From Burkholderiaceae bacterium (GTDB taxonomy: Bacteria; Pseudomonadota; Gammaproteobacteria; Burkholderiales; Burkholderiaceae_D), in contig JBEKVI010000021.1 in NCBI GenBank assembly GCA_049514215.1, positions 1 to 64,000 on the forward strand: 64,000 bases of DNA, written 5' to 3'. Below the pieces are notes generated by a model. It saw only the letters and a list, made by a program, of their open reading frames with translations, was not told where the DNA came from and did no database searches. Positions 28,838 to 60,359 of this stretch are shown piece after piece (the stretch's first letter is position 1; the number at the start of each line of letters is the position of its first letter). A program made the translations under genes and the position numbers.

Positions 28838-28838
28838 G

Positions 28839-29822: not shown

Positions 29823-29844
29823 GCACCCTCCTTAAGGGATCAAC

Positions 29845-35988: not shown

Positions 35989-36917
35989 GCGAGCGCCTTC
36001 AGACCCGGCTGCGGGTGGTGCACGAGACCCGCTACAGGTACGCGAGCCGGGTCGAATTCGCCCATCATCTGGCCTATTTACGGCCGCTTGAGGCGGCATC
36101 GTTCCAGATGCTCGACCGCTTTGGTCTGACGATCACACCGCGGCCTTCGTATCTTGCGGAGAACCGCGACTCCTACGGCAACGCGCGCGTGTTCTTCTCG
36201 CTCTATGTCCCGCATCGCGAGCTCATCGTGCGCGCCGAAAGTGCGTTGACCATCGCCGACCGCTTCGCCGGTGTCGATCTGGATGCGGGCATCAGCTGGG
36301 AGAAAGTGCGCAAGAGCCTGCGTTACGAGGCGGGCGAGCCGTGGCTTGAGCCCACCGAATACGTGTTCGCCTCTCCCTTTGTACTCCTGCACGCCGAACT
36401 GCGCGACTACGCCCTGGGCTCGTTTACGCCGGATCGACCACTGCGCCAGGCTGCCTTGGATCTCATGCACCGGATCCATGCGGACTTCACCTACGAGTCG
36501 GCCAGCACCGATGTCTCCACGCCGCTGTTGGAGGCGTTCCAGATGCGGCGTGGCGTGTGCCAGGACTTCGCGCATGTCTTCATCAGCTGCATGAGAAGCC
36601 TCGGACTGGCTGCCGCCTATGTGAGCGGCTATCTCCTCACGCATCCGCCTGCAGGCCGTCCTCGACTGACGGGGGCCGATGCCTCGCATGCCTGGGCCTC
36701 GGTGTGGTGCCCCGACCTCTCGGCCAACTCGGGATGGCTCGATCTGGATCCGACCAATGATCTCGTGCCCTCGATGGGGCATGTCGTTCTCGCCCGCGGA
36801 CGCGACTACGGCGATGTCGCGCCACTCAGAGGGGTGATCCGCGGGGGTCGCGATCACGAGCTCTCGGTCGCCGTCTCGGTCGAGCCGGTGGGCACACCCG
36901 AGTACTCCCAGCCCTAG
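35985..36917 (+). CDS. Transglutaminase-family protein (short form: Bact_transglu_N + core)
   Basis: VHETRYRYASRV...GVCQDFAHVFISCMRSLGLAAAYVSGYL...HAWASVWCPDLSANSGWLDLDPTND. ATGA overlap with the upstream fusion gene. Confidence 0.85.
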   Translation: MSERLQTRLRVVHETRYRYASRVEFAHHLAYLRPLEAASFQMLDRFGLTITPRPSYLAENRDSYGNARVFFSLYVPHRELIVRAESALTIADRFAGVDLDAGISWEKVRKSLRYEAGEPWLEPTEYVFASPFVLLHAELRDYALGSFTPDRPLRQAALDLMHRIHADFTYESASTDVSTPLLEAFQMRRGVCQDFAHVFISCMRSLGLAAAYVSGYLLTHPPAGRPRLTGADASHAWASVWCPDLSANSGWLDLDPTNDLVPSMGHVVLARGRDYGDVAPLRGVIRGGRDHELSVAVSVEPVGTPEYSQP

Positions 36918-38199: not shown

Positions 38200-38347
38200 G
38201 GGGCAACTCCCAGAATCGGAAATGGGCGCGACGATACAGGAGTTCAGGGGAGCATGTCCTGTTGCGTTGCAGCAAAGGAAGAGGGGAGCATTTGCCCGCT
38301 TTATTGTTAATCCGCGGTGCAAGCGTTGTATGGGACGCGAGTCTGGG

Positions 38348-38376
38348 GGTCAAACGAGACCGAAGGCGCCTACAAT
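38348..38376 (+). promoter_or_regulatory. Candidate sigma70-type promoter for the Anbu gene (GGTCAA-N16-TACAAT)
   Basis: TACAAT at 38371-38376, about 35 nt upstream of the ATG at 38412. The -35 match is weak. Confidence 0.3.
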
Positions 38377-38411
38377 GCCAAGATACTCCACAAGCATACC
38401 GGCTGGGCTTT

Positions 38412-39293
38412 ATGACTTATTGCGTTGCGATGCGCCTTGACGAGGGATTGGTATTTCTCTCCGATTCACGAACCAACGCAGGGGTGGACCAGATCAGCAC
38501 CTTTCGCAAGATGCTGGTTTTCGAGCGGCCATCCGAACGCGTCCTGGTGTTGATGACCGCGGGCAACCTTGCCATCGGGCAGTCGGTCCGACAGTTGATC
38601 GAGGAGCGGACCAGCGCCCGCGGCAAGAATATCTGGACCGTGTCCTCCATGGTGGACGCCGTGCGCTTAGTCGGCGAGGCCGTGCGCGATGTGCGCACGC
38701 GCGATGCCGAAGCGCTCACCGAGGCCGGCATCGAATTTAGCATCAGCTTCATCTTGGGTGGTCAGATCGGCAACGAGCGCACGCGCCTTTTCATGGTCTA
38801 TGCGGCGGGAAACTACATCGAAGCCCACGACGAGAGCCCCTACTTTCAGATCGGCGAATCCAAGTACGGAAAACCCGTGATCGACCGCATGATCCGGCCG
38901 GAAAGCTCGCTTGACGAAGGTGCGAAGTGCGCACTGGTCTCGATGGATTCGACTCTGCGCTCCAATATCTCGGTGGGACTACCGCTCGATCTTCTGTGCT
39001 ACGAGGTGAATTCGCTCTGTGTGACGCGCTTTACGAGCATTGACCATCGCAACCAATACTTCCAGATGATCCACAACACCTGGGGCCAGCGCTTAAAGCA
39101 GATTTTTGCCGAGATCCCGGACCCGGTTTGGAACGAGAACCAACCCAAGGAGGAGGGCAGCCGCAGGGCGGCCTTGGGTGAGCCGGTACGCGCGATCCTG
39201 CCCGAGTCCCTCGCCTCGCCCAATGAGACCGTGCCGTCGCGGCGCTTTCAGACACTCGCCGAACAGGAACCGAACACGACCCAGTTTCTCTGA
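38412..39293 (+). CDS. Anbu (ancestral beta-subunit) proteasome-homolog peptidase, Ntn-hydrolase T1 family
   Basis: Starts MTYCVAMRLDEGLVFLSDSRTNAG, with Thr directly after the initiator Met (Ntn nucleophile position). About 293 aa. Classically linked to COG2308/2307/1305 operons. Confidence 0.8.
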   Translation: MTYCVAMRLDEGLVFLSDSRTNAGVDQISTFRKMLVFERPSERVLVLMTAGNLAIGQSVRQLIEERTSARGKNIWTVSSMVDAVRLVGEAVRDVRTRDAEALTEAGIEFSISFILGGQIGNERTRLFMVYAAGNYIEAHDESPYFQIGESKYGKPVIDRMIRPESSLDEGAKCALVSMDSTLRSNISVGLPLDLLCYEVNSLCVTRFTSIDHRNQYFQMIHNTWGQRLKQIFAEIPDPVWNENQPKEEGSRRAALGEPVRAILPESLASPNETVPSRRFQTLAEQEPNTTQFL

Positions 39294-44568: not shown

Positions 44569-44584
44569 TGGCATGAACTCTGCT
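44569..44584 (+). promoter_or_regulatory. Candidate sigma54 (-24/-12) promoter TGGCAT-N6-TGCTT upstream of the allophanate hydrolase gene
   Basis: GG at 44570-44571 and GC at 44582-44583 are 11 nt apart as in the TGGCAC-N5-TTGC consensus. ATG at 44621. Confidence 0.4.
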
Positions 44585-44620
44585 TGTGTTCCATGTGGTA
44601 TACCAGTCGGCGCCTCCCCC

Positions 44621-46357
44621 ATGCCCCTATCGCTTCCCCTGCAGGAAAAGCTGCGGCACTTTCATGAAAGTGCCGATCATGCAGCTCCTTCGATCTGGAT
44701 TACGCGCGGGCCTCAGTATCTGCTTGCCAACGCGAGTGATCAGGGTGGGGCGCTTGCCGGCAAGCTCGTGGCGGTCAAGGACAATATCGATGTCGCCGGC
44801 TTTCCGACGACGCTGGCGTGCCCGCCCATGACCTATCAGCCCACGCGTTCGGCGCGGGTCGTGGAGCGCCTGGTTCAGGCGGGGGCGCTCGTCGTGGGCA
44901 AGACCAATCTTGACCAGTTCGCCTGCGGATTGGTCGGCACCCGCTCTCCCTATGGTGCCGTACCCAATGCCTTTTTGCCCGAGTACATCAGCGGCGGGTC
45001 GAGCTCGGGTTCGGCCGTGGCCGTGGCTTTGGGACTGGTCGACATTGCGCTCGGTACCGATACGGCAGGCTCAGGCCGAATCCCGGCCGGCTATAACAAC
45101 ATCGTGGGGCTAAAGCCCTCGCGCGGCCTAATTAGCGCCCGCGGTGTCTTTCCCGCTTGCCAGCATCTCGACTGCGTCTCGATCATGACGCGCGAGGTGG
45201 GATTGGCGGCCGAGGTGTTAAGGGTTTGCGCGGGAGCCGATCGCGAAGACCCGTTCTCCCGGGCGCTTCCCCTTTTGCCCGGGTTTGTCGCCGAATCCTT
45301 CCAGTTCGGGGTACCCGGTGCCAAACAACTGGAGTTCTTCGGCGACGCCTTGTCTGCCGAGGCCTTTGGCCGGGCGCGGGCGCTACTGGCCGGGCTTGGC
45401 GGGCGCGAGAATACGATCGACTTTGCGCCTTTGGCCAAGGCCGCTGACGCGCTCTACGAAGACGCTTGGGTGGCCGAGCGCTATGCAGCCATTAGGTCCT
45501 TCTTCGATCGTCAGCCCGAGGCCATCGATCCGGTGGTGCGCGCCATTATCGAGCGCGGCAGGCACCATTCTGCGGCAGATCTCTTTGACGCGATGGTGCG
45601 CATGGGCCACTGGCATCAGCAGGCCCAAGCCCTCTGGGACGGGCTCGACGTGCTGGTGGTGCCTACGGCGCCTAACCACCCGACGATTGCCGAAGTGCAA
45701 AGCGATCCCGTCGAAACCAATCGACGTCTGGGCGTCTACACCAACTTCGTCAATCTCCTGGATCTGGCGGCGGTCGCCGTTCCGGCATCGATGCGTCCGG
45801 ATGGCCTTCCTTTCGGGATCACGCTCATCGGTCCTGCTGGCAGCGAGTGGCGTCTGTTGGATCTGGCGAAGCGCATCCACGCCGCCACGGGGCTTGCGGG
45901 AGGATTGGTGGGCGAGCCGGAAGTCTCCACCGGACCCATGGCACGCGCGCCAGGCGCGATCGTCCGGGTGGCAGTGGTGGGCGCGCACCTCGATGGACTG
46001 CCCTTAAACGGGCTCCTACGCTCGCGGGGCGCGCGACTGGTGTGCCTGACGAGCACGGCTCCCGTCTATCGCCTCTACGCGCTTCAGGGAACAAGGCCCG
46101 CCAAACCGGGACTCGTGCGCCAGGGCGCATCCGGCAAGGCCGGGCTTGCGATCGAAGCCGAGATCTGGGAGCTGCCCACGGCGCACTACGGTGCCTTTGT
46201 CGCCGAGATTCCGGCGCCTTTGGGCATCGGCATGATCGAGATGGCCGACGGCAGTCGCGTGCAGGGCTTTCTGTGCGAAGCAGCGGCCGTCGAGAACGCG
46301 CTCGACATCTCCCATTTCGGGGGCTGGCGCGCGTACCTGAAGCATTCGAGCACATGA
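44621..46357 (+). CDS. Allophanate hydrolase (AtzF-like: amidase-signature domain + C-terminal allophanate-hydrolase domain)
   Basis: Amidase signature GGSSSGSAVAVALG...GTDTAGSGRIPA. About 130-aa C-terminal extension (VGAHLDGLPLN...) typical of AtzF. 578 aa. Confidence 0.8.
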   Translation: MPLSLPLQEKLRHFHESADHAAPSIWITRGPQYLLANASDQGGALAGKLVAVKDNIDVAGFPTTLACPPMTYQPTRSARVVERLVQAGALVVGKTNLDQFACGLVGTRSPYGAVPNAFLPEYISGGSSSGSAVAVALGLVDIALGTDTAGSGRIPAGYNNIVGLKPSRGLISARGVFPACQHLDCVSIMTREVGLAAEVLRVCAGADREDPFSRALPLLPGFVAESFQFGVPGAKQLEFFGDALSAEAFGRARALLAGLGGRENTIDFAPLAKAADALYEDAWVAERYAAIRSFFDRQPEAIDPVVRAIIERGRHHSAADLFDAMVRMGHWHQQAQALWDGLDVLVVPTAPNHPTIAEVQSDPVETNRRLGVYTNFVNLLDLAAVAVPASMRPDGLPFGITLIGPAGSEWRLLDLAKRIHAATGLAGGLVGEPEVSTGPMARAPGAIVRVAVVGAHLDGLPLNGLLRSRGARLVCLTSTAPVYRLYALQGTRPAKPGLVRQGASGKAGLAIEAEIWELPTAHYGAFVAEIPAPLGIGMIEMADGSRVQGFLCEAAAVENALDISHFGGWRAYLKHSST

Positions 46358-46403: not shown

Positions 46404-47435
46404 ATGACCGATACAAACGATGATTTGGGTGTGCGCTGGAAAAGCGGCGATGTGCGGACGGGCCGTCGGCGTTTTGTCGGACTTGCAGGCGCGTCAGCCG
46501 CCGTCGCCTTGGCGCCTTGGCGCGCAGCGCGCTCCGAGTCGGGCACCAAGGTGCGCATCGGCTACTGGCCGATCGCAGCGGGGCTGCCGTTTTACGCAGC
46601 TCTCGAGAAGGGCTACTTCAAGGAGGCCGGCCTTGATGTCGAAGGGGTGAAGTTTGCCGGTGCGCAGCAAGTGATGGAAGCGATGCTTTCGGGGCGCTGC
46701 GACGGCAGTGCCAATGGCACGGGATCGGCCAATCTCGCCATCGGCGAGATCGCCTCGCCTGGCCTGTTGAAGATCTTCGCATCGAATCCGAGCAACGCGA
46801 GCGCGGTCCTCGACGAATTCCTGGTGGCCAGCGCAAGTCCCGTGAAATCCATCTCCGAACTGAAGGGCAAGAGGGTCGGCTCGGGTCCGGGCATCCAGAA
46901 CGTGACACTGGCCAAGGCCGTGCTCGAGAAGGCCGGCGCAAGCGGAGCCACGGTGGTGGAGTTGCCCATCGCAGCGCACGTCGGTGCGCTGGCTGCCGGG
47001 CAGATCGATGCGGTGTACACGCTCGAGCCCACAGGTACGGTCGGGCGTCTTGCCGGATCCACGCGCATCCTCGAGCCCGGCGTCATCGCCCACTATGTCC
47101 TGGGCGATCCGCAGGCACCGTGGTTCGGCGGTTCGGCCTCCCTGACGTCGTCATTCATCAAGGACCATCCGGCGGAGACGAAGGCGTTTATCGCGGCCTA
47201 TGCCCGCGGCATCGATCTGGTCAGAAAGGACCCCAACGAAGCGCGCAAGTATCTCAAGGGGTATACGGCGATCGACGGAAGCCTGACCCAGGAGGTGCCG
47301 CTGGCAGCCTATAAGCTCTCGACCGAGTTCACGCATTCCGACGTCGAGATGTTCCAGAAGTTCTTCGACCTTTTCTCCGACAAGGGTATCTTCAAGTCGC
47401 GCGTACTGGTCGAACCGATGCTCTATAAGGGATGA
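46404..47435 (+). CDS. ABC transporter substrate-binding protein, NitT/TauT (NMT1/SsuA-like) family
   Basis: Tat-like signal RRRFVGLAGASAAVALA. NMT1-like fold. Confidence 0.75.
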   Translation: MTDTNDDLGVRWKSGDVRTGRRRFVGLAGASAAVALAPWRAARSESGTKVRIGYWPIAAGLPFYAALEKGYFKEAGLDVEGVKFAGAQQVMEAMLSGRCDGSANGTGSANLAIGEIASPGLLKIFASNPSNASAVLDEFLVASASPVKSISELKGKRVGSGPGIQNVTLAKAVLEKAGASGATVVELPIAAHVGALAAGQIDAVYTLEPTGTVGRLAGSTRILEPGVIAHYVLGDPQAPWFGGSASLTSSFIKDHPAETKAFIAAYARGIDLVRKDPNEARKYLKGYTAIDGSLTQEVPLAAYKLSTEFTHSDVEMFQKFFDLFSDKGIFKSRVLVEPMLYKG

Positions 47436-48265
47436 CCATGGAGACTTCCAGTGGCGATCTGGTGGCACCCGAAGCGTTAGCGCAAAAGCCGGTGAGACGA
47501 TTCACCCTGGGGTCGGTTGCGACCGCACTCATCCCGCTTCTGGGGCCGCTTGCGCTTTTCATCGTCTGGGACGTCATGGTGCGTGCCCGCATCGTCAGTC
47601 CCGTCCTTTTACCGCTACCCCTGGCCACGCTCGTCACGCTCGTGACGGGCATGTTCTCGGGCTCGCTGCTTCAGGATTTCGGCTACACCCTCTTGCGCAC
47701 TCTGGAGGCCTTTGGTCTGGCCGCAATTGTGGGCGTGCCCCTGGGCGTTCTTTTGGGCAGTAACGAGCGCGCCTATCGCAGCGTGGAATTCCTGATTGAC
47801 TTCTTCCGATCCACGCCCTCGTCGGCCCTGATCCCGCTGTTTCTCATGATCTTCGGTGTCTCCGACATCAACAAGGTCGCCATCGCCGCATTTGCGGCAC
47901 TCCTCGTCATCCTCTTTAACAGCGCCTATGGCGTCATCAATGCGCGCAAGCAGCGCGTCATGGCCGCTCAAGTCATGGGCGCCTCGCGCTGGCAGATCTT
48001 CCGGGACGTCCTCATCTGGGAGAGCCTGCAGCCGACTTTCGTGGGCCTGCGCAGTGCCATCTCGATGGCCTTGGTCATCGTCATCGTAGCCGAGATGTTC
48101 ATCGGCTCCGAAAACGGGCTCGGCCATCGCATCATCGATGCGCAGCAGGTACTGAACGTGCGCGACATGTATGCGTCGATCCTCGCCGCCGGAGGCCTGG
48201 GATATGCGCTCAACATCCTTTTTCTCGTGCTCGAAAAACGCATCGTCCACTGGAGCGGCAGATAG
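47432..48265 (+). CDS. ABC transporter permease, NitT/TauT family
   Basis: Six TM segments. ATGA overlap with the upstream binding-protein gene. Confidence 0.8.
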   Translation: MTMETSSGDLVAPEALAQKPVRRFTLGSVATALIPLLGPLALFIVWDVMVRARIVSPVLLPLPLATLVTLVTGMFSGSLLQDFGYTLLRTLEAFGLAAIVGVPLGVLLGSNERAYRSVEFLIDFFRSTPSSALIPLFLMIFGVSDINKVAIAAFAALLVILFNSAYGVINARKQRVMAAQVMGASRWQIFRDVLIWESLQPTFVGLRSAISMALVIVIVAEMFIGSENGLGHRIIDAQQVLNVRDMYASILAAGGLGYALNILFLVLEKRIVHWSGR

Positions 48266-48267
48266 TC

Positions 48268-49086
48268 GTGCGTCCCGTCAATCCCCCCCTAGCCGATACC
48301 ACCCCAACCCCGGTGTTTGTCCCGGGGCCGCCCGGAACACACATTACCATCCGCGGGCTCACCAAGTTCTTCGCGGGGCGGCCCCTCTACCAGAACTTTG
48401 ATCTGGACATTCCTAAGGCCAGCATCGTCTCGGTGTTTGGGCCCAATGGATGCGGAAAGTCGACGCTCATCAACATGATCGCCGGGCTCATTCCGATCGA
48501 CTCGGGCTCGATCCTGTTCGACGGAAAATCGCTCGCCCAAACGAAGATCGGCTATGTCTTTCAGAACTACCGCGAGGCGCTTTTCCCGTGGCTGCGCACG
48601 ATCGACAACATTGCCTATCCGCTGCGTCTGGAGGGCAAAACGCGCGCCCAGGTCGAGCAGCGCGTGGCCGAACTGGTGGCCTCGTTTGACGTCAAGTTCG
48701 ATCTGCACCGCTATCCCTACGAGCTCTCCGGCGGCCAGCAGCAGACCGCCTCCATCATGCGGGCTCTTGCTCCCCAGCCGGAAGTGCTCTTTCTGGACGA
48801 ACCCTTTTCGGCACTGGACTTCGAGATGACCCTGTTCATCCGCGAAAAGCTCCAGGAGGTCTTCATGGCGACCGGCACCACGATGATGCTGGTCTCGCAT
48901 GACCTCGAGGAGGCCGTCTACCTGGCCGACCAGGTTCTCCTGTTGACCAAGCGCCCCACCCGCATTGCCGAAATTCTGACCTACGCCGATCACCGTCCGC
49001 GCACCGTCGAGACACTCTCGGCACCCAGTTTCATCCATACCAAGGCCAAGAGCCTTGAAATCTTCCAGCGCGAAGTCCGCCGATAG
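48268..49086 (+). CDS. ABC transporter ATP-binding protein, NitT/TauT family
   Basis: Walker A GPNGCGKST, signature LSGGQQQ, Walker B LFLDEPFSALD. Confidence 0.85.
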   Translation: MRPVNPPLADTTPTPVFVPGPPGTHITIRGLTKFFAGRPLYQNFDLDIPKASIVSVFGPNGCGKSTLINMIAGLIPIDSGSILFDGKSLAQTKIGYVFQNYREALFPWLRTIDNIAYPLRLEGKTRAQVEQRVAELVASFDVKFDLHRYPYELSGGQQQTASIMRALAPQPEVLFLDEPFSALDFEMTLFIREKLQEVFMATGTTMMLVSHDLEEAVYLADQVLLLTKRPTRIAEILTYADHRPRTVETLSAPSFIHTKAKSLEIFQREVRR

Positions 49087-49101: not shown

Positions 49102-49284
49102 ATGCAGCCCAGTGAATACGAAGAGTACGTGGCCGCCGCCTTAACGCTTGCGGGCTATTCGTTTGATGCGCCGCAGCGCGCGTTGATCGCGGCCGAGTTC
49201 GCGCGCATCGCCGGCATCGCCGCCGACTTTGTCGACGAACCCCTGGCCGTGGAGCTCGAGCCGATCACGCTGTTTCGTCCATGA
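49102..49284 (+). CDS. Small (60 aa) AtzG-like subunit partner of the downstream amidase
   Basis: 60-aa ORF whose stop overlaps (ATGA) the amidase start. Position and size match AtzG of atzG-atzE-atzH operons. Confidence 0.5.
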   Translation: MQPSEYEEYVAAALTLAGYSFDAPQRALIAAEFARIAGIAADFVDEPLAVELEPITLFRP

Positions 49285-50729
49285 CTGTGACGACCGCCCA
49301 GCAAATCGGCGCGGCGATCCGTGTGGGATCCATCAGCGCGAGCGCGGTCGTGGAGGATTGTCTGGAACGCATCGCAAGGCGCGATCCGGTGCTCAACAGT
49401 TTTACCGAGGTCACTGCCGAGCGCGCGCGCCGTGAGGCGGCCGAGATCGATGCCCTGGCGGCCCGGGGAGCTGCGCTGCCGCCGCTCGCCGGAGTACCGT
49501 ATGCGGTGAAGAATCTGTTTGATGTCGAGGGGGTGATCACGCTCGCCGGGGCCAAGATCAATCGCGACCGCGCGCCTGCCAAGGCCGACTCGGTGCTCGT
49601 AGGACGCATGCGCGCGGCCGGCGCCATCCTGGTTGGCGCGCTCAATATGGATGAACATGCCTACGGCTTCACCACGGAGAACACACACTTCGGGGCGACG
49701 CGCAATCCGCATGATCCTAGCCGGACTGCGGGCGGCTCTTCCGGAGGCTGCGGAGCCGCGGTGGGCGCCGGACTCGTTCCGATTGCGCTGGGCTCGGACA
49801 CCAATGGTTCGATTCGCGTGCCGTCCTCGCTTTGCGGCGTCTTTGGTCTGAAGCCAACCTATGGCAGGCTGCCACGTACCGGAACGTTTCCGTTCGTGCA
49901 CGGCCTAGACCACCTCGGACCCTTTGGGGCTTCGGTGGGCGATCTCGCCTTGTCTTACGATGCCATGCAGGGTTTTGATGCGGGCGATCCGGCCTGCGCA
50001 CCCCGTGGCTTGGAGCCGACCTTTGCCGCCGTGCGGCGCGGTGCGCCGCCTCCCGACGGAGAACGCATGGCCGTCTTGGGCGGACACTTCGAGCGATGGG
50101 CGTCTCCACGGGCGCGCGCGGCCACTGCTGAGGTCGCGGCTGCTTTGTGCGTCACGCACCGGGTCGAATTGCAGGGGGCCAACCAGGCCCGTGCCGCGGC
50201 CTTCATCACCACCGGCTCGGAGGGCGGCGCACTGCATCGGCATGCCCTCATCGAGCGCTACGCCGAGTTCGAGCCGCTCTCTCGCGACCGGCTGGTCGCA
50301 GGCTCGCTCATACCGGCCAGTTGGTACATCGCAGCCCAGCGCATCCGCGCGCGCGTCTTAAGTGAGGCACTTGCCCTGTTTGAGCAGTACGAGGTGTTGA
50401 TTGCGCCTGCGACGCCCGTCTGTGCGCCGGTGCTGGGCACCGAGTGGCTCGAGATCAATGGCCAGCGGGTTCCCGCGCGCGCAAGCCTGGGGCTACTGAG
50501 TCAACCGATCTCCGCACTGGGACTGCCGGTCTGCACCGTTCCGATCTGGCCTAGCCTGGTGCAAGAGAGCGATCCCGCGGACCGGCCGCGGCCTGCCCAG
50601 GACCCGGACGGTCATCTTCCCCTCGGTGTGCAGATCATCGCGGCTCCGTGGCGAGAAGACCTGTGTCTGATGGTGGCAGCCCGCCTGGAGGCCTTGGGCA
50701 TCGCGCGTTGCATGAGCCCCTTGAGCTAG
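49281..50729 (+). CDS. AtzE-like amidase (1-carboxybiuret hydrolase family; Ser-cisSer-Lys amidase signature)
   Basis: [68 protein letters not shown]. Close to AtzE as I recall it. Confidence 0.7.
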
Positions 50730-50740: not shown

Positions 50741-51124
50741 ATGGAAATCAATCGACCCGAAGTCTTAGCCGAGGTCACAGCGGCCTTTGAGAGCTACGAG
50801 AAGGCCCTCGTGGGCAACGATGTCGCCATGCTCGATCGCCTGTTTCGCGATGCGCCCGAGACCCTGCGTTACGGCGCCACCGAGAACCTCTATGGCTTTG
50901 CCGCCATTTGTGCGTTTCGCGCCGGTCGCTCGCCGCAGGGCCTCAAGCGACGGGTGCTGCGCTGCGTGATCACGACCTACGGACGCGACTTCGCCACAGC
51001 CAACATCGAATTCCAGCGCGAAGGCCAAAGCGCGGTGGGTCGTCAAAGCCAGACCTGGGTGCGTTTTGACCTGGGGTGGCAGGTGGTCGCAGCACACGTG
51101 AGTTTCCTTGCGATGGCGGCCTGA
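50741..51124 (+). CDS. AtzH-like NTF2-fold protein (DUF3225)
   Basis: 127 aa ([28 protein letters not shown]...). Immediately follows the AtzE-like gene. Confidence 0.55.
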
Positions 51125-51126
51125 AG

Positions 51127-51864
51127 ATGCGCATTGCGGCACCCAAGCGGCGCGATCCAGGCGAGCCCACGCTCGCCGACCAGGCCTACGAGCGCATCAA
51201 GGCGGAGATCTTCGATTTCGAGCTGGTCCCGGGCGACCGTTTCTCCGAAGCCGAACTTGCGCAGCGCCTGGGGATGTCGCGCACCCCGGTGCGCGAAGCC
51301 TTAAGCCGGCTGCAGCGCGAAGGCTATCTGGAAGTCCATTTCAAAAGCGGCTGGTCGGTCAAACCCTTCGATTTCGAGCAGTTCGAGCATCTCTACGACT
51401 TGCGCATGGTCTTGGAGACGACCGCAATCCGGCGCCTTTGCGAGGGAGCGGAAACGTTGATTCTGGCCGAGCCGATCGAGGAGCTCAAACGCATCTGGCT
51501 CGTCCCCAAGGAAGGCCGGGAAAGTGAGGGCTCCAAGGTCGCTCGGCTGGACGAGAACTTTCACGCCGCCCTGGTCGAGGCGGCCGGCAATCCCGAAATC
51601 GCGCGAGTACACAGAGCCGTCACCGAGCGCATCCGCATCATCCGGCGCCTGGATTTCACCCAGGCTGCGCGCATCGACAGCACCTACGACGAACATGCCC
51701 AGATCCTGCGCGTGGTGCTGGCGCGGCGTGCGCCCCAGGCCGAACTCCTTTTGCGTTCGCACATCGAACAGAGCAAAGCCGAGGTGCGCAAGATCACGCT
51801 TCACAAGCTCTATACGGTGCGAGCCGCCTCGGCCGAGCGCCATCGCGTCAAGCCCGAACTCTGA
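51127..51864 (+). CDS. GntR-family transcriptional regulator (FCD-type C-terminal domain)
   Basis: HTH GDRFSEAELAQRLGMSRTPVREAL. 3-nt gap after the AtzH-like stop. Confidence 0.8.
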   Translation: MRIAAPKRRDPGEPTLADQAYERIKAEIFDFELVPGDRFSEAELAQRLGMSRTPVREALSRLQREGYLEVHFKSGWSVKPFDFEQFEHLYDLRMVLETTAIRRLCEGAETLILAEPIEELKRIWLVPKEGRESEGSKVARLDENFHAALVEAAGNPEIARVHRAVTERIRIIRRLDFTQAARIDSTYDEHAQILRVVLARRAPQAELLLRSHIEQSKAEVRKITLHKLYTVRAASAERHRVKPEL

Positions 51865-51993: not shown

Positions 51994-53172
51994 ATGACAT
52001 TGCGACGTCGCGATCTTCTGGCGGCAGCCGGAAGTCTCGGTTGGATATCGGTCCTTAATGCCTGCGGCGGCGCGAATACCGAATCGGGAAACACGCCGCC
52101 GGCCTCGAACATCGATTTGAAGCTCCTAGCCGGCAGCGCACGGCAAAGCCCGGTCAGCAACGATGGTGTGGGCAGCGCTGCGACCTTCACCTCGCTTTTT
52201 TCCTGCGTGACCAACTCCCTCGGCAATATCTACGTCGGCGATACCGATGCGCTACGCATCGTCAGCCCGACGGGTGCGGTCTCGACCGTGGCAGGGCTTG
52301 CGAACAGTTCCGGCTACGCGGACGCGTTGGGATCGTCGGCCCGCTTTGGAATTCTGGGGGCGCTCGCGATCGATCAGAGCGGCAATATTCTGGCTTCCGA
52401 TCAGTACAGTTTCGCAATACGCCAGATCACCCCCGCAGGACAGGTGAGTACCCTCATCGGGGTGACCGGACGCACCGTCCCAGGCGCAGGTGGCGCCAAC
52501 GTCCCTGTCAACGGAACGCTCACCAACATCACGCTGCCCTTTGGCAGCTACGCTGGCGCCATCGCCCTCGATGGCAGCGGAAACATCTATCTCGCCTTTG
52601 CATCCGAGATCCTGAAGGTGTCCACGACGGGCGTGGTGACCACCTTCGCCGGCAGCGCGACCCAAGGCACCACCGACGGCGTCGGAAGCGCCGCCACGTT
52701 TGGCGTCATCACCGCGATGACCAGCGATGGCCTGGGCAATCTCTACGTCACCCAAAACACCGGTGCGGTCGAGACGGCGGGCGTGGCGAGCGTTGCCGCG
52801 ACGGCCTCGGTGCGCAAGATCACACCCGGCGCCGTGGTCAGCACCATCGCCGGGGGCACCAGCGGCAACGCCAACCCGTATGGATACAAGAACGGAGCGG
52901 CGGCTCAGGCCCAGTTCACGCTGCTCGAAGGTATTGCCCTGGATCCCGCAGGTGATTTCTACCTGGCCGACAATGGCAATGGCGTGGTGCGCAAGCTATC
53001 GGCGGGCGGTACTGTGACGACCGTGGCGGGAACCACCGATCCTGTTGGGACCACGATCGTGCCTGGCCCTCTTCCGGCGGAGATCCTGCCTCCTGTCGGC
53101 CTTGCCCTCGCGGGAAGCAAGCTCGTCATCCTCTGTCCGAACGCGGTCCTTCAGACGACCGGCTTGCCTTAG
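51994..53172 (+). CDS. NHL-repeat-like beta-propeller lipoprotein
   Basis: Lipoprotein signal MTLRRRDLLAAAGSLGWISVLNAC. Repeated Gly/Thr/Ala-rich blades (SPTGAVSTVAG..., ITPAGQVSTLIG..., VSTTGVVTTFAG..., ITPGAVVSTIAG..., LSAGGTVTTVAG). Confidence 0.55.
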   Translation: MTLRRRDLLAAAGSLGWISVLNACGGANTESGNTPPASNIDLKLLAGSARQSPVSNDGVGSAATFTSLFSCVTNSLGNIYVGDTDALRIVSPTGAVSTVAGLANSSGYADALGSSARFGILGALAIDQSGNILASDQYSFAIRQITPAGQVSTLIGVTGRTVPGAGGANVPVNGTLTNITLPFGSYAGAIALDGSGNIYLAFASEILKVSTTGVVTTFAGSATQGTTDGVGSAATFGVITAMTSDGLGNLYVTQNTGAVETAGVASVAATASVRKITPGAVVSTIAGGTSGNANPYGYKNGAAAQAQFTLLEGIALDPAGDFYLADNGNGVVRKLSAGGTVTTVAGTTDPVGTTIVPGPLPAEILPPVGLALAGSKLVILCPNAVLQTTGLP

Positions 53173-53458: not shown

Positions 53459-53848
53459 ATGGCGATACAAGGTATGAGCCACTTCACCGTCCTGACGAAT
53501 GACGTGCCGGCGACCGAGCGCTTTTACTGTGATCTTCTCGGTCTTGAAGTAGGCTGGCGTCCGGATTTCAACTTTCCGGGGCTCTGGTTGTACTCCGCCG
53601 GTGTCCCCATTCTCCACGTCATTGGCGGCCGTACGGAGGCAGAACTCCGAGCTGGCGTCATCGATCACATGGCGTTTGACGCCGTTGACCTTCCGACCAC
53701 TGTCGAACGACTGAAGAACCAAGGCGTGAAATACGAGCTGCGCCGGACCGCAGGAAGCGCCCAAGGAATCTGGCAACTGTTCTGCTTTGATCCCAACGGC
53801 GCAAAAGTTGAACTCGATTTCAAGGCAAGTGAATCGCCGCCTGCCTGA
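53459..53848 (+). CDS. VOC/glyoxalase-bleomycin-resistance family protein
   Basis: 129 aa (HFTVLTNDVPATERFYCDLLGLEV...HMAFDAVDL). GAGGAG RBS. Confidence 0.7.
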   Translation: MAIQGMSHFTVLTNDVPATERFYCDLLGLEVGWRPDFNFPGLWLYSAGVPILHVIGGRTEAELRAGVIDHMAFDAVDLPTTVERLKNQGVKYELRRTAGSAQGIWQLFCFDPNGAKVELDFKASESPPA

Positions 53849-53892: not shown

Positions 53893-54573
53893 CTAGACCG
53901 TGACCGGGCCAAGCGCTTCCTCTAAGGCCGACAACGGGGCGGTCCATCCCACGATGGCGCCCTGGGCCGTGATCATCTCGAGGGTCGCTTTCTTGAAGGC
54001 CGGGAAATAGCTCTCGGTTGCGTCCTCGATGAGGAGCCCGTTATAGCCGCGATCGTTGGCCTCGCGCATGGTGGTCTGCACGCACACTTCGGTCGTCACG
54101 CCGGCAAAGATCAGGTGCGTGATCTCGCGCGCGCGCAGCACCTGCTCGAGTGGCGTGGCGTAAAAGGCGCCCTTACCGGGCTTGTCGATGACGAGTTCGC
54201 CAGGCTTCGCCGCGAGCTGGGCCACGATGTTATTGCCCGGCTCCCCGGTGATGAGCACGCGTCCCATCGGGCCCGGGTCCCCGATGCGAAGCGAAGGTGA
54301 TCCGCGCAGGCGCTTGGCCGGCGGGCAGTCCGAAAGATCGGGGCGGTGGCCCTCGCGGGTGTGGATGACGGCGATCCCGTGCGCACGGCAGGTTTCAAGA
54401 AGCGCGAAGACCGTCGGCACGATCGCCTCGAGCCGGCTGACGTCATTGCCCAGCGACGCGCCAAATCCGCCGGGCTCGACGAAGTCGCGCTGCATGTCGA
54501 TGACGATCAATGCCGTGTGGGCGGGGTCGAACGCGTATTCGAAAGGGGTGGCTGCAAGGCGGCGCTCGGTCAT
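53893..54573 (-). CDS. Isochorismatase-family cysteine hydrolase (BiuH/TrtA/RutB-like), paralog A
   Basis: Catalytic triad context [12 protein letters not shown] (Asp), DKPGKGAFY (Lys), [12 protein letters not shown] (Cys). 226 aa. Confidence 0.75.
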
Positions 54574-54590
54574 GGCAAATCGATTCCGGA

Positions 54591-56189
54591 TCAGTGTGTC
54601 AGCGCGGGAGATTCCGAGTGCCCGGCCATGTGTCGCCCGATCTCGCGCATGTCGGCATTCTGGACATCAGTCTCATAGACCAAGCGGCCCTCGGACATCA
54701 CGGCGATCCGGTCAGCGAGCTCGAAAAGCTCGTCTAAGTCCTCGCTGACCAAAAGCACCGCCGTCCCGCCGTTGCGTGCCGCGATGATGCGATCGTGAAT
54801 CTCGCTGACGGCGGCGAAATCGAGGCCGAACACGGGATTGGCGACAATGAGCAAGGATACCGGAGCCGAAAGCTCGCGCGCGAGCACTGCGCGCTGCACG
54901 TTGCCTCCCGACAACGTTCCGATGGCGGCCTTGGGCCCCTGCGTTTTGACTTTGAACTCACGAATCCAGCGTTCGGCCTGTGTGCGCGCCGCGCGCCGGT
55001 TAAGCCAAATGCCCATTGCCAGAGGGGCCTGGTCGAAGTTGCGTAGCGCCATGTTGTCGGCCACGCTCATGCGGGCGACGCAGGCGTTTTTCAGGGGCTC
55101 TTCGGGCAGGCTAAAGACGGCGAAGCTGCGGATCTCGTCGCGCTTGGAGTGGTACGGCAGGCCATCGACTGTGATCGATCCCGAACTGGGTTCGCGTTGA
55201 CCGATCAAGGCTTCCACCAGTTGACGCTGCCCGTTGCCCGACACGCCGGCGATGCCGAAGATCTCTCCCGGCCGAACCGAAAGGCTCACCTTCTCAACGG
55301 CCGGCATGCCGATGTCATCTTCGACGACGAGATCGGTGACCAAAAGACGTGGTGCGACATCGGCCTTGAGCGGCGTTTTCTTGGTGTCGGACTGCGGAAT
55401 CTGGCGCGAGCCCACCATCATCTCGGCCATGCGCTGCGCATCGAGCTCGGCAATCGGTGCGCCGCCCGCGAGCCGGCCGCGCCTGAGCACCGTGACGGCG
55501 TCGGCAAAGCCCAGGACCTCGCGAAATTTGTGCGTGATCATGAGAACCGAAAGCCGGCCCGACTGTGTCATCTCCTTGAGCATCCCGAGCACTTCGTCGG
55601 CCTCCTCGAGCGTGAGCACGGAGGTGGGTTCGTCTAAGATCATGAAGCGGCTCTTCAGATAGAGCTGCTTTAGGATCTCGAGCTTTTGTTTCTCGCCTGC
55701 GGCCAACCTTGAGACGGGGCGGTCGAGCGGCACCTGGAACGGGACCGATTGCATGAAGGCCGCGATGCGCTCGCGCTCGTCGCGCCAGCGGATGACCGCG
55801 GGCACGTCGGCACGCGACATGACGAGGTTTTCCGTGGCCGTCATGCTGGGTACGAGGGTGAAATGCTGGTAGACCATGCCGATGCCCAACGCGTGCGCAT
55901 CCTGGGGGGTCGAGATGACCTGTTCGCGGCCGTCGACCATGATCTGACCTTCGTCGGCCAGTTGGTAGCCGACGAGACATTTGACGAGCGTGCTCTTGCC
56001 GGCTCCGTTTTCGCCGAGCAAGGCGTGAAACGATCCCGGCATGACCCGCATCGAGACATCCTCGAGCGCAGCAAATGAGCCAAAGCGCTTGGTCAGGTGC
56101 AAGACTTCGACTCCGACGGCGCGCTCGCTTGGGACCGCCGGATGGGTCTCGCTGCTGACCACCCTGAGCATTTCCGAAGGAATCGACAT
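54591..56189 (-). CDS. ABC transporter ATP-binding protein with duplicated ATPase domains (CUT2/BMP-type)
   Basis: Two Walker A sites (GENGAGKST; GVSGNGQRQ) and two signature/Walker B sets. 532 aa. Confidence 0.85.
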
Positions 56190-56196
56190 GGGCTTC

Positions 56197-56868
56197 CTAG
56201 AGGGCGACGGTCAGTTCGGCGCTGGTTGCGACGGCACCGAACACGCCGCCTTGCATCTTGATCATGTGCAGCGCTGCCCGATGATTGCCCGCGTCGGTGG
56301 CCGCGGTGCAGTCGGCCAGCAACAGGCATTCGAACCCGCGATCGTTGGCGTCGCGCATGGTGGTATGGACGCACACGTCGGTGGTGATGCCCGTGAGAAT
56401 CAGGTTGCGGATGCCACGCGTGCGCAGCACCAGTTCCAGGTCAGTCGCGTAGAACGAGCCCTTGCCGGGTTTGTCGATCACGATTTCGCCGGGATGGGGC
56501 GCAAGCTCGGCGATGATCTCCCAGCCCGGCTCACCGCGCACCAGGATCTTGCCGCAAGGACCCGGATCGCCGATACCGGCACCGATCTGGCGCGAGCGCC
56601 AGCGCTTGTTGGCGGGCAGATCCGACAGATCGGGACGGTGGCCTTCACGGGTGTGGATGATGAGATAGCCCGCCTCGCGCATGGTCGCAAGCAGCGACTT
56701 GATGGGGCCGATGGGCGCGCGCGTGAGCGCCAGATCGTAGCCCATCTTGTCGACGTAGCCGCCTTCGCCACAGAAGTCGGTTTGCATGTCGATGATGATG
56801 AGCGCGGTGTTGCCGGGACGTAGATCGCCGTCGAAGGGCCACGGATAGGGGTCGGCTTGAACGAACAT
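56197..56868 (-). CDS. Isochorismatase-family cysteine hydrolase (BiuH/TrtA/RutB-like), paralog B
   Basis: [33 protein letters not shown]. 223 aa. Start overlaps the upstream permease stop (TAATG). Confidence 0.75.
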
Positions 56869-57788
56869 TATTTTTGGATCGAAAGTTCGCCGGGGGCTCC
56901 GGCCAGCGCGCGGGTGCGCGAGGAGGTCATGATCATGATTGCCAGGGTGAGCGCGTAGGGTGTCGCGTTAAAGAGGTAGTAGCCGCTCGTGATGCCGACC
57001 GACTGAAGTGCCGGACCCAGAGCTCCCGCACCCCCGAAGAGCAGGGCGGCCCAGAAGCAGTTCACGGGATTCCAGCGCGCGAAAATGACGAGCGCGACGG
57101 CGATGAGTCCCTGGCCGCTCGAGAGGCCCTCGCTCCAGCTGCCGGGGTAATAGAGGGAGAGGAAGGAGCCTCCGATTCCCGCAAAGATGCCGCCCACGCC
57201 GGTGCAGCCGATGCGCACGAGATTGACGCGGTAGCCCATGGCGCGCGCGGCTTCGGCGCTGTCTCCGACGATGCGGACCACCAAGCCGATGCGCGTCGTG
57301 CGAAATGCGTAGGCCAGCCCAATGGTCAGGACGATGCCGATCAAGAACAGGGGGTTGATCACCAACGCCGCGCGCAGTGGGGCCAGATCGCTCCAGTTTC
57401 CGAGCGCGAGCCCCGGAAGGAGCTTGGCCTGGGGCTGGATGAAGGGCTTGCCCAGATAGAACGCAAGCCCGGTCCCAAAGAGCATGAGTGCGATGCCTAC
57501 GGCGATGTCGTTGACGCGCTTGAGACTGCAGAGCATGCCGTGCAAAAGGCCAAAGAGTAATCCCACCCCGCCTGCGGCGATCACCCCCCACCAGGGGCTG
57601 CCGGAAAGATAGGAGATCGCATAGCCAGTCATGGCGCCCATGACGAGAATGCCCTCCAGACCCAGATTGATGCGTCCGCTGCGCTCGGTGATGCACTCAC
57701 CTAGGCTCACGAACAAGAAGGGCGTGCTCACGCGAATCGCGCCCGAGAAAATCGCCAGCGGCACGCCCCACCAGCCGATCCCGTTCAT
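56868..57788 (-). CDS. ABC transporter permease (BMP-family importer)
   Basis: Start taken at [16 protein letters not shown] (idx 31 of ORF 56868..57881). Multiple TM segments. ATGA overlap with the upstream permease. Confidence 0.75.
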
Positions 57789-58891
57789 GACGTGGCCTCC
57801 TTGGCTAAGGGCTGTGGCGTGGCCGCGATGCTCGTTGGGGCCGGCTTGGCCCAGTTGATGCGGCCGTAGAGCGTTTCGCAAGCCAGGATGAGCAAGAAGG
57901 CAATGCCCTCAAGAACGAGCACGGCCGCATCAGGCATGTCCAGACGCCGCTGCAGCATCCCGCCGCTGGCTGAAATGCCGCCCAGCAGGATGGCCACGGG
58001 CACGATGGCAATGGGATTGTGGCGCGCGATGAACGCGACCAGGATCCCGGCGTAGCCGTAGCCTGCGATGAGTGACGCGTTGGCCGCGCCATGGACGGCG
58101 GCGACTTCCACCGCGCCGGCCAAGCCCGCCGCAAGTCCTCCGAGCGCGCAGGCCAGAAGCACAAGCCCCCCGGTCGGAAGTCCCGCAAGCAGGCCCGCAC
58201 GCAGGTTTCCGCCAGCCACCCGCATGGCAAAGCCGATGGTCGTGCGATACACGAGGGCATAGGAGAGGATGCAGGCAATGATGCCAAAGCCCAGCCCCCA
58301 GTGGACATTGAGACCGGGCAGATTGCCCAGGCGATTCTCATCGCCAATGGGAAAGGTGGAGGGCTTGTTCAGGCTCGCCGGGTCGCGCAAGACACCTTCG
58401 ACCAAGTGATTGAAAAGGGCGATGGCGATGTACGCCAACAGAAGGCTCGAGATGGTCTCGTTGACGCCCCGGTAATGGCGCAGGCCGCCGGCCAACATGA
58501 TCCAGACCGCGCCCGTGACCATGCCTGCCAGAAGCATTCCGGTATCGACGATGAAAGCACCACTACCCGAGAGCAGATGTCCCATGACGGCAGCCGCAAG
58601 CCCGCCCAGAACGAGTGCGCCTTCTCCACCGATGATCATGAGTCCGACCTGGGCAGGCAGGGCGACACACAGCGCGGTGAGGATGAGAGGCGCAGCCCTC
58701 GAGAGTGTGTTCTGCCAGGAAAAGCCGCTCGCAAACCCGCCCCGGTAGATGAGTGCGTAGACCTCGAGCGGATCTTTGCCGAGTACCCAGACGAAAGCTC
58801 CAAAAAGAACGGCTGCCGCGCACAGCGCAATCAGCGGCACCGCGACCGCCTCGACAGCGGGTCCGAGCTGCGCTCTGCCGGGCCGTTCCAT
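57785..58891 (-). CDS. ABC transporter permease (BMP-family importer)
   Basis: 368 aa, 8-10 TM segments. Confidence 0.8.
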   Translation of the reverse strand: MERPGRAQLGPAVEAVAVPLIALCAAAVLFGAFVWVLGKDPLEVYALIYRGGFASGFSWQNTLSRAAPLILTALCVALPAQVGLMIIGGEGALVLGGLAAAVMGHLLSGSGAFIVDTGMLLAGMVTGAVWIMLAGGLRHYRGVNETISSLLLAYIAIALFNHLVEGVLRDPASLNKPSTFPIGDENRLGNLPGLNVHWGLGFGIIACILSYALVYRTTIGFAMRVAGGNLRAGLLAGLPTGGLVLLACALGGLAAGLAGAVEVAAVHGAANASLIAGYGYAGILVAFIARHNPIAIVPVAILLGGISASGGMLQRRLDMPDAAVLVLEGIAFLLILACETLYGRINWAKPAPTSIAATPQPLAKEATS

Positions 58892-58898
58892 GGGAGCT

Positions 58899-60026
58899 CT
58901 AGATCTTGCCGACCACGCCGGTCACCAGATAGTTCATCTGCTCCAGAACCGGGTCCGTCTGCTGATAGGACGTGCCCGAGGCAATCACGGTCTTGCCCGC
59001 GTTGTCCACGAGGGGACCTTTGAAGATCACGAAGTCGCCCTTCACCATCGAGGCCTTGATGCCATCGGCGGTGCTGCGCGCCGTGGCGCTGGCGCCTGGT
59101 CCGTAGGGGGACATCTTGACGAAGCCCTCCTTGAGGCCGCCGCGCAGGAAGTTCTTCATCGGTGCGCCCGACATCGCGTCATTGACGTGTACGGTGTAGG
59201 GCGTAAGCCAGTTCCACTCCGCCCCCGTCAGATAGCCCTTGGGTGCGAGCGCGGACTGGTTTGCGTGGTAGCCGCACACAAAGATGCCACGCCGCTCGGC
59301 CGTCTCGACGATGACTTTCGGGCTGTCGACGTGGCACGTGATGACGTCGACGCCTTGGTCGATGAGACTGTTGGCCGACTCCGCCTCCTTCACGGGCAGC
59401 GACCAGTCGCCGGTGATAATGAGCTGGGTCGTGATCTTGGGATCGACGCTGCGCGCGCCCAGGGTAAAGGCATTGATGTTGCGCAGCACCTGGGGAATCG
59501 GTTTGGCGGCGATGAAGCCGAGCTTCTTGCTCTTGCTCGCATGGCCTGCGACGACGCCGTTGAGGTACTGGCACTCGTCGATGTAGCCGAAGTAGCTGCC
59601 GGCATTTTTGGGATGCTTGCCTTCGGTCCACATGCCGCCGCAGTGGGCAAAGCGCACCTTCGGATACTTGGCGGCCATGCGCAGCATGAAGGGGTCGAAA
59701 TAGCCGAACGAGGTCGCAAAGATCAACCCGGCGCCGTCTTGTTCGACCATCGAGGACATGGTGTTTTCAACATCGGTGGTTTCAGGTACCTTTTCCTGCT
59801 CGACCACGGTCACGCCGGGCAGCTTCTTGATCTGTGCGGCTGCCTGGGCTTGCGCCTGGTTGTAGCCGTAGTCATCGCGAGGGCCCACGTAGATCACGCC
59901 GACCGTGAGTTTGTCGGCGGCGAACGCGCGCGAAAGCGAAAGTGGACCGACCGCGCTGGCCGCTGCGCCCATCGCGATTTGCTTTAGCACAGCACGGCGG
60001 GACGGGCTCTTGGGCGATGAACTCAT
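58899..60026 (-). CDS. BMP-family (Med/PnrA-like) ABC transporter substrate-binding lipoprotein
   Basis: Tat-type signal SRRAVLKQIAMGAAASAVGPLSLSRAFA. BMP fold (LTVGVIYVGPRDDYGYNQA...). AAGGAGA RBS on the minus strand. Confidence 0.8.
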   Translation of the reverse strand: MSSSPKSPSRRAVLKQIAMGAAASAVGPLSLSRAFAADKLTVGVIYVGPRDDYGYNQAQAQAAAQIKKLPGVTVVEQEKVPETTDVENTMSSMVEQDGAGLIFATSFGYFDPFMLRMAAKYPKVRFAHCGGMWTEGKHPKNAGSYFGYIDECQYLNGVVAGHASKSKKLGFIAAKPIPQVLRNINAFTLGARSVDPKITTQLIITGDWSLPVKEAESANSLIDQGVDVITCHVDSPKVIVETAERRGIFVCGYHANQSALAPKGYLTGAEWNWLTPYTVHVNDAMSGAPMKNFLRGGLKEGFVKMSPYGPGASATARSTADGIKASMVKGDFVIFKGPLVDNAGKTVIASGTSYQQTDPVLEQMNYLVTGVVGKI

Positions 60027-60088
60027 GCCGTTTTCTCCTTATCCATGGAAAATAAAATCTGGGATACCAGACGGTGCGCAACATGGAA

Positions 60089-60105
60089 TGCAATAGGCAT
60101 GCCAG
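60089..60105 (-). promoter_or_regulatory. Candidate sigma54 (-24/-12) promoter CTGGCATGCCTATTGCA (minus strand) for the BMP-ABC/hydrolase operon
   Basis: Minus-strand read matches TGGCAC-N5-TTGCA with GG and GC 11 nt apart. About 60 nt upstream of the ATG at 60026. Confidence 0.5.
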
Positions 60106-60252: not shown

Positions 60253-60281
60253 AGGCGCGTGGCCCGCTTTGGTGCACGCGC
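60253..60281. promoter_or_regulatory. Inverted repeat GGCGCGTG-N13-CACGCGCC about 150-190 bp upstream of the sigma54 element (candidate enhancer/activator site)
   Basis: Perfect 8-bp arms read from the sequence. Distance from the -24/-12 element is typical for bacterial enhancer-binding-protein sites. Confidence 0.25.
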
Positions 60282-60359
60282 CAAACCGTTCTAGTGCGGA
60301 TCGGTGCCGAGATGGGGGATGGCCGAAGTCATCGCCGCGGGCACCCGGGAATCCCCTGT

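Follow-up and report, generated by a model that had tools for sequence, protein, structure and literature searches.

A probable triuret and biuret assimilation cassette built around a BMP-family ABC importer in a Burkholderiaceae bacterium

What does an ATP-binding cassette (ABC) importer of the BMP family carry when the genes of two amide hydrolases lie among its own? The question is raised by a 64,000-nucleotide stretch of a Burkholderiaceae genome (contig JBEKVI010000021.1 of GenBank assembly GCA_049514215.1, positions 1 to 64,000; referred to here as the window), in which six minus-strand genes encode a substrate-binding protein, two permeases, an ATPase and two paralogous isochorismatase-family cysteine hydrolases. 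A previous reading of the letters alone, which we call the original prediction, proposed that the hydrolases act in sequence on an imported nitrogen-rich amide—for example triuret and then biuret—or on a pyrimidine or ureide catabolite. Triuret and biuret are nitrogen-rich impurities of fertilisers. Judged from sequence comparison, it is highly probable that the region is a cassette for their assimilation, in which import would be followed by breakdown by two enzymes. The six genes, in operon order, are:

58899..60026, minus strand: BMP/PnrA-family substrate-binding protein (Pfam PF02608 Bmp, 142.9 bits)
57785..58891, minus strand: ABC permease 1 (PF02653, BPD_transp_2)
56868..57788, minus strand: ABC permease 2 (PF02653, BPD_transp_2)
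56197..56868, minus strand: hydrolase B, predicted BiuH, isochorismatase family (NCBIfam NF050097)
54591..56189, minus strand: two-domain ABC ATPase (PF00005 in two matched stretches, that is, fused nucleotide-binding domains)
53893..54573, minus strand: hydrolase A, predicted TrtA, isochorismatase family (PF00857, 148.7 bits)

Pfam supports the family assignment of all six genes, and the four that do not encode hydrolases make up, by their predicted products, a complete BMP-family ABC importer; its ATPase is closest to CUT2-type and BMP-associated ATPases. The open reading frames (ORFs) lie where, and in the order in which, the original prediction had placed them, and direct reading of the sequence confirmed the tight junctions that it described: a 7-nucleotide gap between the stop codon of the binding protein and permease 1, an ATGA overlap between the two permeases, a TAATG overlap, and gaps of 7 and 17 nucleotides. 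For permease 2, the mechanical ORF extends to TTG 57881; the start is most likely ATG 57788, which sits behind an AAGGAGG site.

The identity of the hydrolases carries most of the argument. Hydrolase B scores 424.9 bits against the BiuH equivalog model NF050097, above the cutoff of 370, and hydrolase A scores 255.6 bits, below it. Among all PDB chains, the best match of hydrolase A is 6XIX (322 bits), the triuret hydrolase TrtA from Herbaspirillum sp. BH-1 (PMC7948467), followed by the BiuH of Rhodococcus (RhdBiuH, 223 bits), the BiuH of Rhizobium (198 bits) and RutB (116 bits); the best match of hydrolase B is Rhizobium BiuH (6AZO, 389 bits). Pairwise identities are 67.9% between hydrolase A and TrtA, 47.5% between hydrolase A and BiuH, 75.7% between hydrolase B and BiuH (6AZO) and 51.8% between the two hydrolases, the last of which agrees with the approximately 50% reported for TrtA versus BiuH (PMC7948467). 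Six consensus positions separate the two enzymes—F35/N41/A134/E160/Y187/I205 in TrtA versus Y/Y/S/D/T/V in BiuH (Tassoulas et al., PMC7948467)—and at these hydrolase A reads FNAEYI and hydrolase B reads YYSDTV, each agreeing with its type at six of six.

The Asp-Lys-Cys triad that the original prediction saw in both hydrolases holds up in alignment, as D26/K131/C164 in hydrolase A (D24/K129/C162 of TrtA) and D27/K133/C166 in hydrolase B. The substrate contacts E72/K132/Q202 of TrtA correspond to E74/K134/Q204 in hydrolase A, and V159-T160 to the V157-T158 pair that forms a cis-peptide in TrtA (a correspondence of residues, not of conformation); equivalents of both the contacts and the Val-Thr pair are present in both hydrolases. 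Hydrolase B also keeps the residues that determine BiuH activity (D36, F41, K142, K145 and Q215) and the catalytic cysteine, as D27, F32, K133, K136, Q206 and C166. Comparison with BiuH, TrtA and RutB places hydrolase A nearest TrtA and hydrolase B nearest BiuH, by scores, identity and marker residues alike. We assign hydrolase A as the TrtA orthologue and hydrolase B as the BiuH orthologue with high confidence; that the former hydrolyses triuret and the latter biuret is what we infer of their catalytic activity. Characterised TrtA converts triuret to carboxybiuret with a preference of approximately 10^4-fold versus biuret.

The arrangement of these genes recurs widely. When one genome per species was scanned, at least 592 relatives of trtA came up, and the best 80 loci were analysed; gene order was assessed in the 54 loci with enough upstream sequence. 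The exact order BMP, permease, permease, BiuH, ATPase, TrtA occurs in 49 of the 54, three more depart from it only in having a second ABC transporter inserted after BiuH and before the ATPase, and two differ, so that 52 of 54 loci preserve the core order. As these loci are independent, the juxtaposition does not arise by chance. Of the genes that follow permease 2 and precede the ATPase, 61 of 64 have the BiuH signature YYSDTV, and in the slot after the ATPase all 80 have FN.EYI. Hosts include Beta-, Alpha- and Gammaproteobacteria, Rokubacteria, Methylomirabilota and Nitrospira, and the sequenced genomes and plasmids that carry the cassette number in the hundreds. The original prediction called the interleaving of hydrolase and transporter genes unusual; it is instead a standard, widely conserved and already published layout. 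A near-identical locus was not found in the genome collection, in which the best match was 77%.

Variation around the six-gene core is illustrated by plasmid pRL10 of Rhizobium 3841, the source of characterised BiuH, which carries GntR and then BMP, permease, permease, formamidase, BiuH, AtzD, ATPase, a TrtA-type gene (FNAEYI) and a cupin gene. The window cassette is without the formamidase, atzD and cupin genes. A gene annotated as formamidase lies between permease 2 and BiuH in 28 of the 80 loci, with 70–81% identity to the pRL10 copy, and also at positions 7943–8959 of locus L082; the published pathway does not account for a formamidase in ureide breakdown. The atzD gene is found in 2 of 80 loci. 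On the Enterobacter hormaechei IncR plasmid NZ_CP058178.1 (L081) and in matches H8–H27, IS1 copies flank the cassette in its entirety (atzF, BMP, permeases, formamidase, BiuH, ATPase, TrtA and GntR). The plasmids are small and of the IncR type and belong to Enterobacter, Klebsiella and Citrobacter from clinical and wastewater sources, and in one record TrtA is annotated as RutB. In two loci (L077 and L079), a TrtA orthologue (69–72% identity) lies outside the conserved cassette, adjoining a distant BMP/ATPase/permease set (25–39% identity), with a BiuH-like gene (38–39%) on the opposite strand.

Where would the product of BiuH go? An adjacent plus-strand unit, convergent with the cassette, comprises atzF, a second ABC importer, atzG/E/H-like genes and gntR, and two unrelated genes separate it from the cassette:

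44573..46357, plus strand: allophanate hydrolase AtzF (TIGR02713, 739.8 bits versus a cutoff of 511; NF006043, 773 versus 487)
46404..49086, plus strand: NitT/TauT-type ABC importer (binding protein 46404–47435, permease 47432–48265, ATPase 48268–49086)
49102..49284, plus strand: borderline AtzG-like small subunit of 60 residues (PF13318, 23.8 bits versus a cutoff of 24; HpxX weak, 16 bits)
49281..50729, plus strand: AtzE-family amidase, 1-carboxybiuret hydrolase-like (AtzE 6C62, 506 bits; NF006631, 641.8 bits versus a cutoff of 461, a model that does not separate AtzE from the oxalurate enzyme HpxY)
50741..51124, plus strand: AtzH-like NTF2-fold protein, NCBI name HpxZ (PF11533, DUF3225, 191.7 bits; NF033625, 197 versus a cutoff of 135)
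51127..51864, plus strand: GntR/FCD-family regulator (PF00392 and PF07729)
51994–53172, between gntR and the end of trtA: NHL-repeat protein
53459–53848, between gntR and the end of trtA: VOC/glyoxalase-family protein

The AtzG-like assignment is borderline: the ORF overlaps the atzE-like start by ATGA, and its position and size fit AtzG, but it has no meaningful PDB match. The AtzH-like protein scores 168.6 bits against AtzH (6BJT), and its Y19/R43/R70 correspond to Tyr22/Arg46/Arg73, of which Tyr22 and Arg46 are catalytic in AtzH (PMC6219798). The components of the NitT/TauT-type importer match SsuA-family, SaoP/TauC-like and SaoA/TauB-like proteins, all under the equivalog cutoffs; in three loci (L010, L019 and L046), its orthologues sit inside the BMP cassette, between BiuH and the ATPase.

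GntR orthologues (52–63% identity) adjoin trtA in most related loci, and in Variovorax, Hydrogenophaga and their relatives the atzF unit shares a strand with the cassette, and GntR comes last. Since gntR directly follows trtA on one strand in most related loci, the cassette in the window appears to be inverted relative to atzF...gntR. Two groups of AtzH-family genes can be distinguished among loci L006–L080: those that adjoin an AtzE gene are 55–72% identical to the window copy, and those directly after trtA or atzF and without an AtzE gene are 37–54% identical. The latter group is probably the carboxybiuret decarboxylase TrtB, whose gene, trtB, was reportedly defined by Aukema et al. 2020. 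The NCBI HpxZ model names both groups 'oxalurate catabolism protein'. The sole AtzH-family gene of the window is of the AtzE-linked type.

Together, these genes outline a pathway that begins in the periplasm, where an exported binding protein would capture triuret and/or biuret for import by the two permeases and the fused ATPase. TrtA would then deaminate triuret to 1-carboxybiuret, which is unstable and may have two fates. In one, it would lose CO2 to give biuret, which BiuH would deaminate to allophanate; in the other, the AtzE/AtzG-like amidase would deaminate it to 1,3-dicarboxyurea, which the AtzH-like protein would convert to allophanate. AtzF would hydrolyse allophanate to ammonia and CO2, so that all four nitrogens would be released. 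The sequential hydrolysis that the original prediction proposed, from triuret to biuret, is supported by the best homologues, the BiuH equivalog model, the six residues and the nearby AtzF.

Which compound does the importer recognize? The original prediction took the binding protein for a lipoprotein of a family that normally takes up nucleosides; the first part does not hold, and the second does not fit its nearest relatives. The N terminus MSSSPKSPSRRAVLKQIAMGAAASAVGPLSLSRAFAADK has a twin-arginine motif; the protein starts MSSSPKSPSRRAVLKQ...SRAFA/ADK, a signal for twin-arginine translocation (Tat) (SRRAVLK ... AFA/AD), and there is no cysteine in the first 45 residues, so no lipobox. The twin-arginine signal and the lack of a cysteine indicate a Tat-exported soluble periplasmic protein, like AtzT, and not a lipoprotein. 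Among proteins of solved structure, it comes closest to AtzT from Pseudomonas sp. ADP (6PI5; 203 bits and 38.7% identity) and to 3S99 from Brucella (180 bits), and the nucleoside binders BmpD and PnrA reach only 48 and 25 bits. AtzT binds guanine at 0.11 µM and also ammeline, adenine and 2-hydroxyatrazine, with cyanuric acid bound weakly (340 µM) and GTP essentially unbound (Kd >8000 µM) (PMC6834077); 3S99 holds adenine. On these scores the window protein is placed in the nucleobase- and triazine-binding branch of the BMP family, not in the nucleoside branch.

Mapping of the AtzT pocket onto the window protein and 52 operon-linked orthologues reveals both retention and change. The aromatic sandwich is kept (Tyr45 of AtzT as Y55, Trp194 as W208), as are Ser97 and Phe98, which make the Ser-Phe backbone contacts, and, as in 3S99, a His/Asp pair occupies the last two pocket positions. 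The position of Glu165, a purine contact in AtzT, is Gln in the window protein and in 47 of the 52 orthologues; Thr139 is likewise Gln, in 45 of the 52. The Rhizobium and Enterobacter binding proteins match the window copy at all nine pocket positions. Such a pocket points to a flat, neutral ligand that is rich in hydrogen bonds, a prediction that agrees with the folded conformation, with an intramolecular hydrogen bond, that triuret adopts within TrtA's active site (PMC7948467). It is plausible that the transporter ligand is triuret and/or biuret, and we lean slightly towards this assignment.

The features that the pocket retains also bear on a different account of the locus. In this account the ABC system would take up some N-heterocycle, such as a purine base (guanine, adenine, ammeline or cyanuric acid are candidates), and TrtA and BiuH would act only on ureides of intracellular origin, produced for instance when urate is broken down oxidatively or a ring is opened. 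Guanine or adenine is the ligand held by AtzT and 3S99, and hydroxy-triazines are also bound; the Tyr/Trp stacking pair, Ser106 and the His/Asp pair of 3S99 are retained; atzD lies within the Rhizobium cassette; and the authors of the TrtA study suggest urate oxidation as a natural source of triuret (PMC7948467). We nevertheless think this account unlikely, as the residue that contacts the purine has become Gln in nearly all operon-linked orthologues, with a Gln at the Thr139 position as well, and atzD is rare among the related loci. No xanthine dehydrogenase, uricase or allantoinase was found among the approximately 49 longest non-overlapping ORFs of the window that were scanned. Moreover, the translational interleaving of hydrolase and transporter genes is maintained across phyla, an argument for a single stream of substrate.

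Models of other isochorismatase-like families were tried on the two hydrolases and rejected. The RutB model TIGR03614 gave 118.7 and 129.8 bits against a cutoff of 377.95, the PncA model gave 39–41 bits against 174 and the YcaC model was far below threshold for both; matches to PncA and isochorismatase were 26–66 bits only, and nicotinamidases and isochorismatases in the PDB gave 22–51 bits. Neither hydrolase therefore belongs with PncA or isochorismatase sensu stricto, a placement that the original prediction had named, together with nucleoside-only binding, as counting against its proposal, and its own pyrimidine alternative is not supported by the RutB scores (116–130 bits versus 378). A role for hydrolase A on some other ureide or amide (carboxybiuret, formylurea, guanylurea or ureidoacrylate), with the pair serving a pyrimidine or other catabolic route, is very improbable: the functions of isochorismatase-like hydrolases vary widely, RutB can be recognized as a relative and the formamidase of 28 of the 80 related cassettes hints at further amide substrates in some hosts, yet hydrolase A is far closer to the ultraspecific TrtA (67.9%) than to BiuH (~48%) and conserves the six marker residues and the E72/K132/Q202 contacts, its matches to RutB, PncA and isochorismatases are weak, and Pfam and NCBIfam scans found no rut genes in the six-gene operon.

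Three putative elements at the heads of the two units bear on their regulation:

60089..60104, minus strand: sigma-54 type −24/−12 motif TGGCATGCCTATTGCA, 63–78 nucleotides upstream of the start codon of the binding protein
60058..60071, minus strand: palindrome TCTGGTATCCCAGA, placed after the promoter and before the ribosome site; candidate operator of the GntR/FadR type
44569..44607, plus strand: head of atzF, with sigma-54-like motif TGGCATGAACTCTGCT (one mismatch) and then palindrome TGTGGTATACCAGT

No site in the 64-kb window other than TGGCATGCCTATTGCA matches TGGCAY-N5-TTGCW perfectly, and 9 of 48 loci have the strict sigma-54 motif upstream of the orthologous gene, where shuffled sequences give an expectation of 0.01. 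The palindrome core TGGTATNCCA occurs at two sites only in the window, the head of the BMP operon and 44596–44605 (0.10 expected), and a related motif, T.GTATAC.A, occurs in 6 of 48 orthologous upstream regions (0.07 expected). The head of atzF mirrors the promoter of the BMP operon, with a sigma-54-type motif and then a TGGTAT.CCA palindrome. The mechanical start of atzF, ATG 44573, falls within the sigma-54-like motif, and the next in-frame ATG is at 44621; the layout of motif and palindrome suggests that the true start is ATG 44621, ahead of which there is no clear ribosome site. The same layout ahead of both units suggests that the BMP operon and the atzF unit form one nitrogen-controlled, GntR-gated regulon. 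Expression would probably proceed from the sigma-54 promoter, implying nitrogen control, and the adjacent GntR-family regulator would gate it through the TGGTAT.CCA operator ahead of both transcription units.

Several other elements were noted around the operon. A perfect inverted repeat, GGCGCGTG-N13-CACGCGCC, lies at 60254–60282, approximately 150 nucleotides upstream of the sigma-54 motif, in the interval that separates ppk from the operon. Within the repeat is a weak NtrC-like half-site, and the repeat may serve as an enhancer site or as the stem of a ppk terminator. The NtrC-like site at 60260–60276 was rejected as indistinguishable from chance. A consensus scan found no convincing intrinsic terminator after trtA, and a match of the terminator scan at 60072–60057 proved to be the operator-like palindrome followed by a T-run.

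Several points weigh against the reading of the region as a triuret and biuret assimilation cassette. The specificity of TrtA is set by second-shell residues, and no single mutation switches it (PMC7948467); with specificity spread in this way, 68% identity and six marker residues are strong evidence for hydrolase A but fall short of proof. No ligand measurement for this transporter was found for any organism in the literature searched, the closest solved relatives of the binding protein bind purines, and the Rhizobium cassette also carries atzD, so that in Rhizobium cyanuric acid could be a ligand. The window has no carboxybiuret decarboxylase of the TrtB type, although in many loci one adjoins trtA. 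Conservation is modest for both the sigma-54 motif (9/48) and the operator (6/48), which are matches to a consensus, and no convincing NtrC-type site was detected, as TGCACY-N5-RGTGCA with up to two mismatches gave 10 matches against 7.9 expected.

The other genes of the window are ordinary chromosomal ones, including those for LysRS, RF-2, RecJ, RelA, GDH, PPK and an RND efflux pump. Between 27293 and 39293, genes for circularly permuted ATP-grasp, Alpha-E, transglutaminase-like and DUF2126 proteins occur in two sets (27293–33336 and 33382–36917), followed by a glutamate dehydrogenase gene on the other strand and a weak proteasome-subunit-like ORF (38262–39293).

Much of this system has been described before. 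The clustering of trtA with biuH has been reported, together with trtB, atzD, atzF, a GntR regulator and an 'ABC transporter cassette' in a supplementary figure (Supp. Fig. 1 of Tassoulas, Elias & Wackett 2021, PMC7948467). Clusters of atzF-(ABC)-atzG-atzE-atzH in Comamonadaceae and Burkholderiales, followed by 'ABC transporters and amidase enzymes', are known (Esquirol et al. 2018, PMC6219798), and in nitrifier genomes atzF is collocated with biuH, trtA, trtB and 'bmpA-nupABC' (mSystems 2025, PMC12625717). Already published, then, are the enzymes and the fact that they occur as a pair, the determinants of their specificity, and the link of both to a BMP-type ABC cassette, GntR and atzF.

The closest comparison is with the trtA-biuH locus of Herbaspirillum sp. 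BH-1 and of pRL10 of Rhizobium johnstonii (leguminosarum) 3841, which has the same hydrolase paralogs with the same residues linked to specificity and, like the window, a BMP cassette with BiuH between permease 2 and the ATPase, TrtA after the ATPase, and GntR and atzF nearby. The window differs in that its cassette is inverted relative to atzF...gntR, with two unrelated genes between the units, and in that it is the bare six-gene core, whereas pRL10 has formamidase and atzD within the cassette and a cupin gene after trtA. The Esquirol clusters (PMC6219798) share the plus-strand unit of the window—allophanate hydrolase, ABC transporter and atzG/atzE/atzH homologues, with the catalytic residues of AtzH kept—but their downstream genes, to which that paper assigned no function, lie on the same strand, whereas the window counterparts run towards the unit on the opposite strand, and the names BiuH and TrtA can now be given to them. 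With AtzT (6PI5) and 3S99, the binding protein shares the BMP/PnrA fold family, the Tat signal, the Tyr/Trp sandwich and the Ser-Phe contacts, but identity is only 35–39% and the operon-linked clade has changed Glu165 and Thr139 to Gln. With the nucleoside-binding lipoproteins PnrA/TmpC and BmpD, it shares the Pfam Bmp domain and the architecture of partner permeases and ATPase; it differs in scoring only 25–48 bits, in being without a lipobox cysteine and in a context of ureide hydrolases, not nucleoside salvage.

The locus itself has little discovery value. Its main value lies in the correct annotation of genes that public records label 'isochorismatase family cysteine hydrolase' or even 'RutB'. 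Beyond this, we put forward tentatively, and stopping just short of favouring it, the proposal that the binding proteins encoded by the cassette form a distinct BMP clade that has switched from purine bases to open-chain, pseudo-cyclic triuret and biuret, and that the cassette and atzF-atzGEH constitute one sigma-54/GntR regulon with two parallel routes from 1-carboxybiuret. The conserved Glu-to-Gln change in the pocket offers a specific and testable approach to what the transporter binds and, if the switch of the clade is true, no importer of the BMP/PnrA type before this one would have had a ligand other than a heterocycle.

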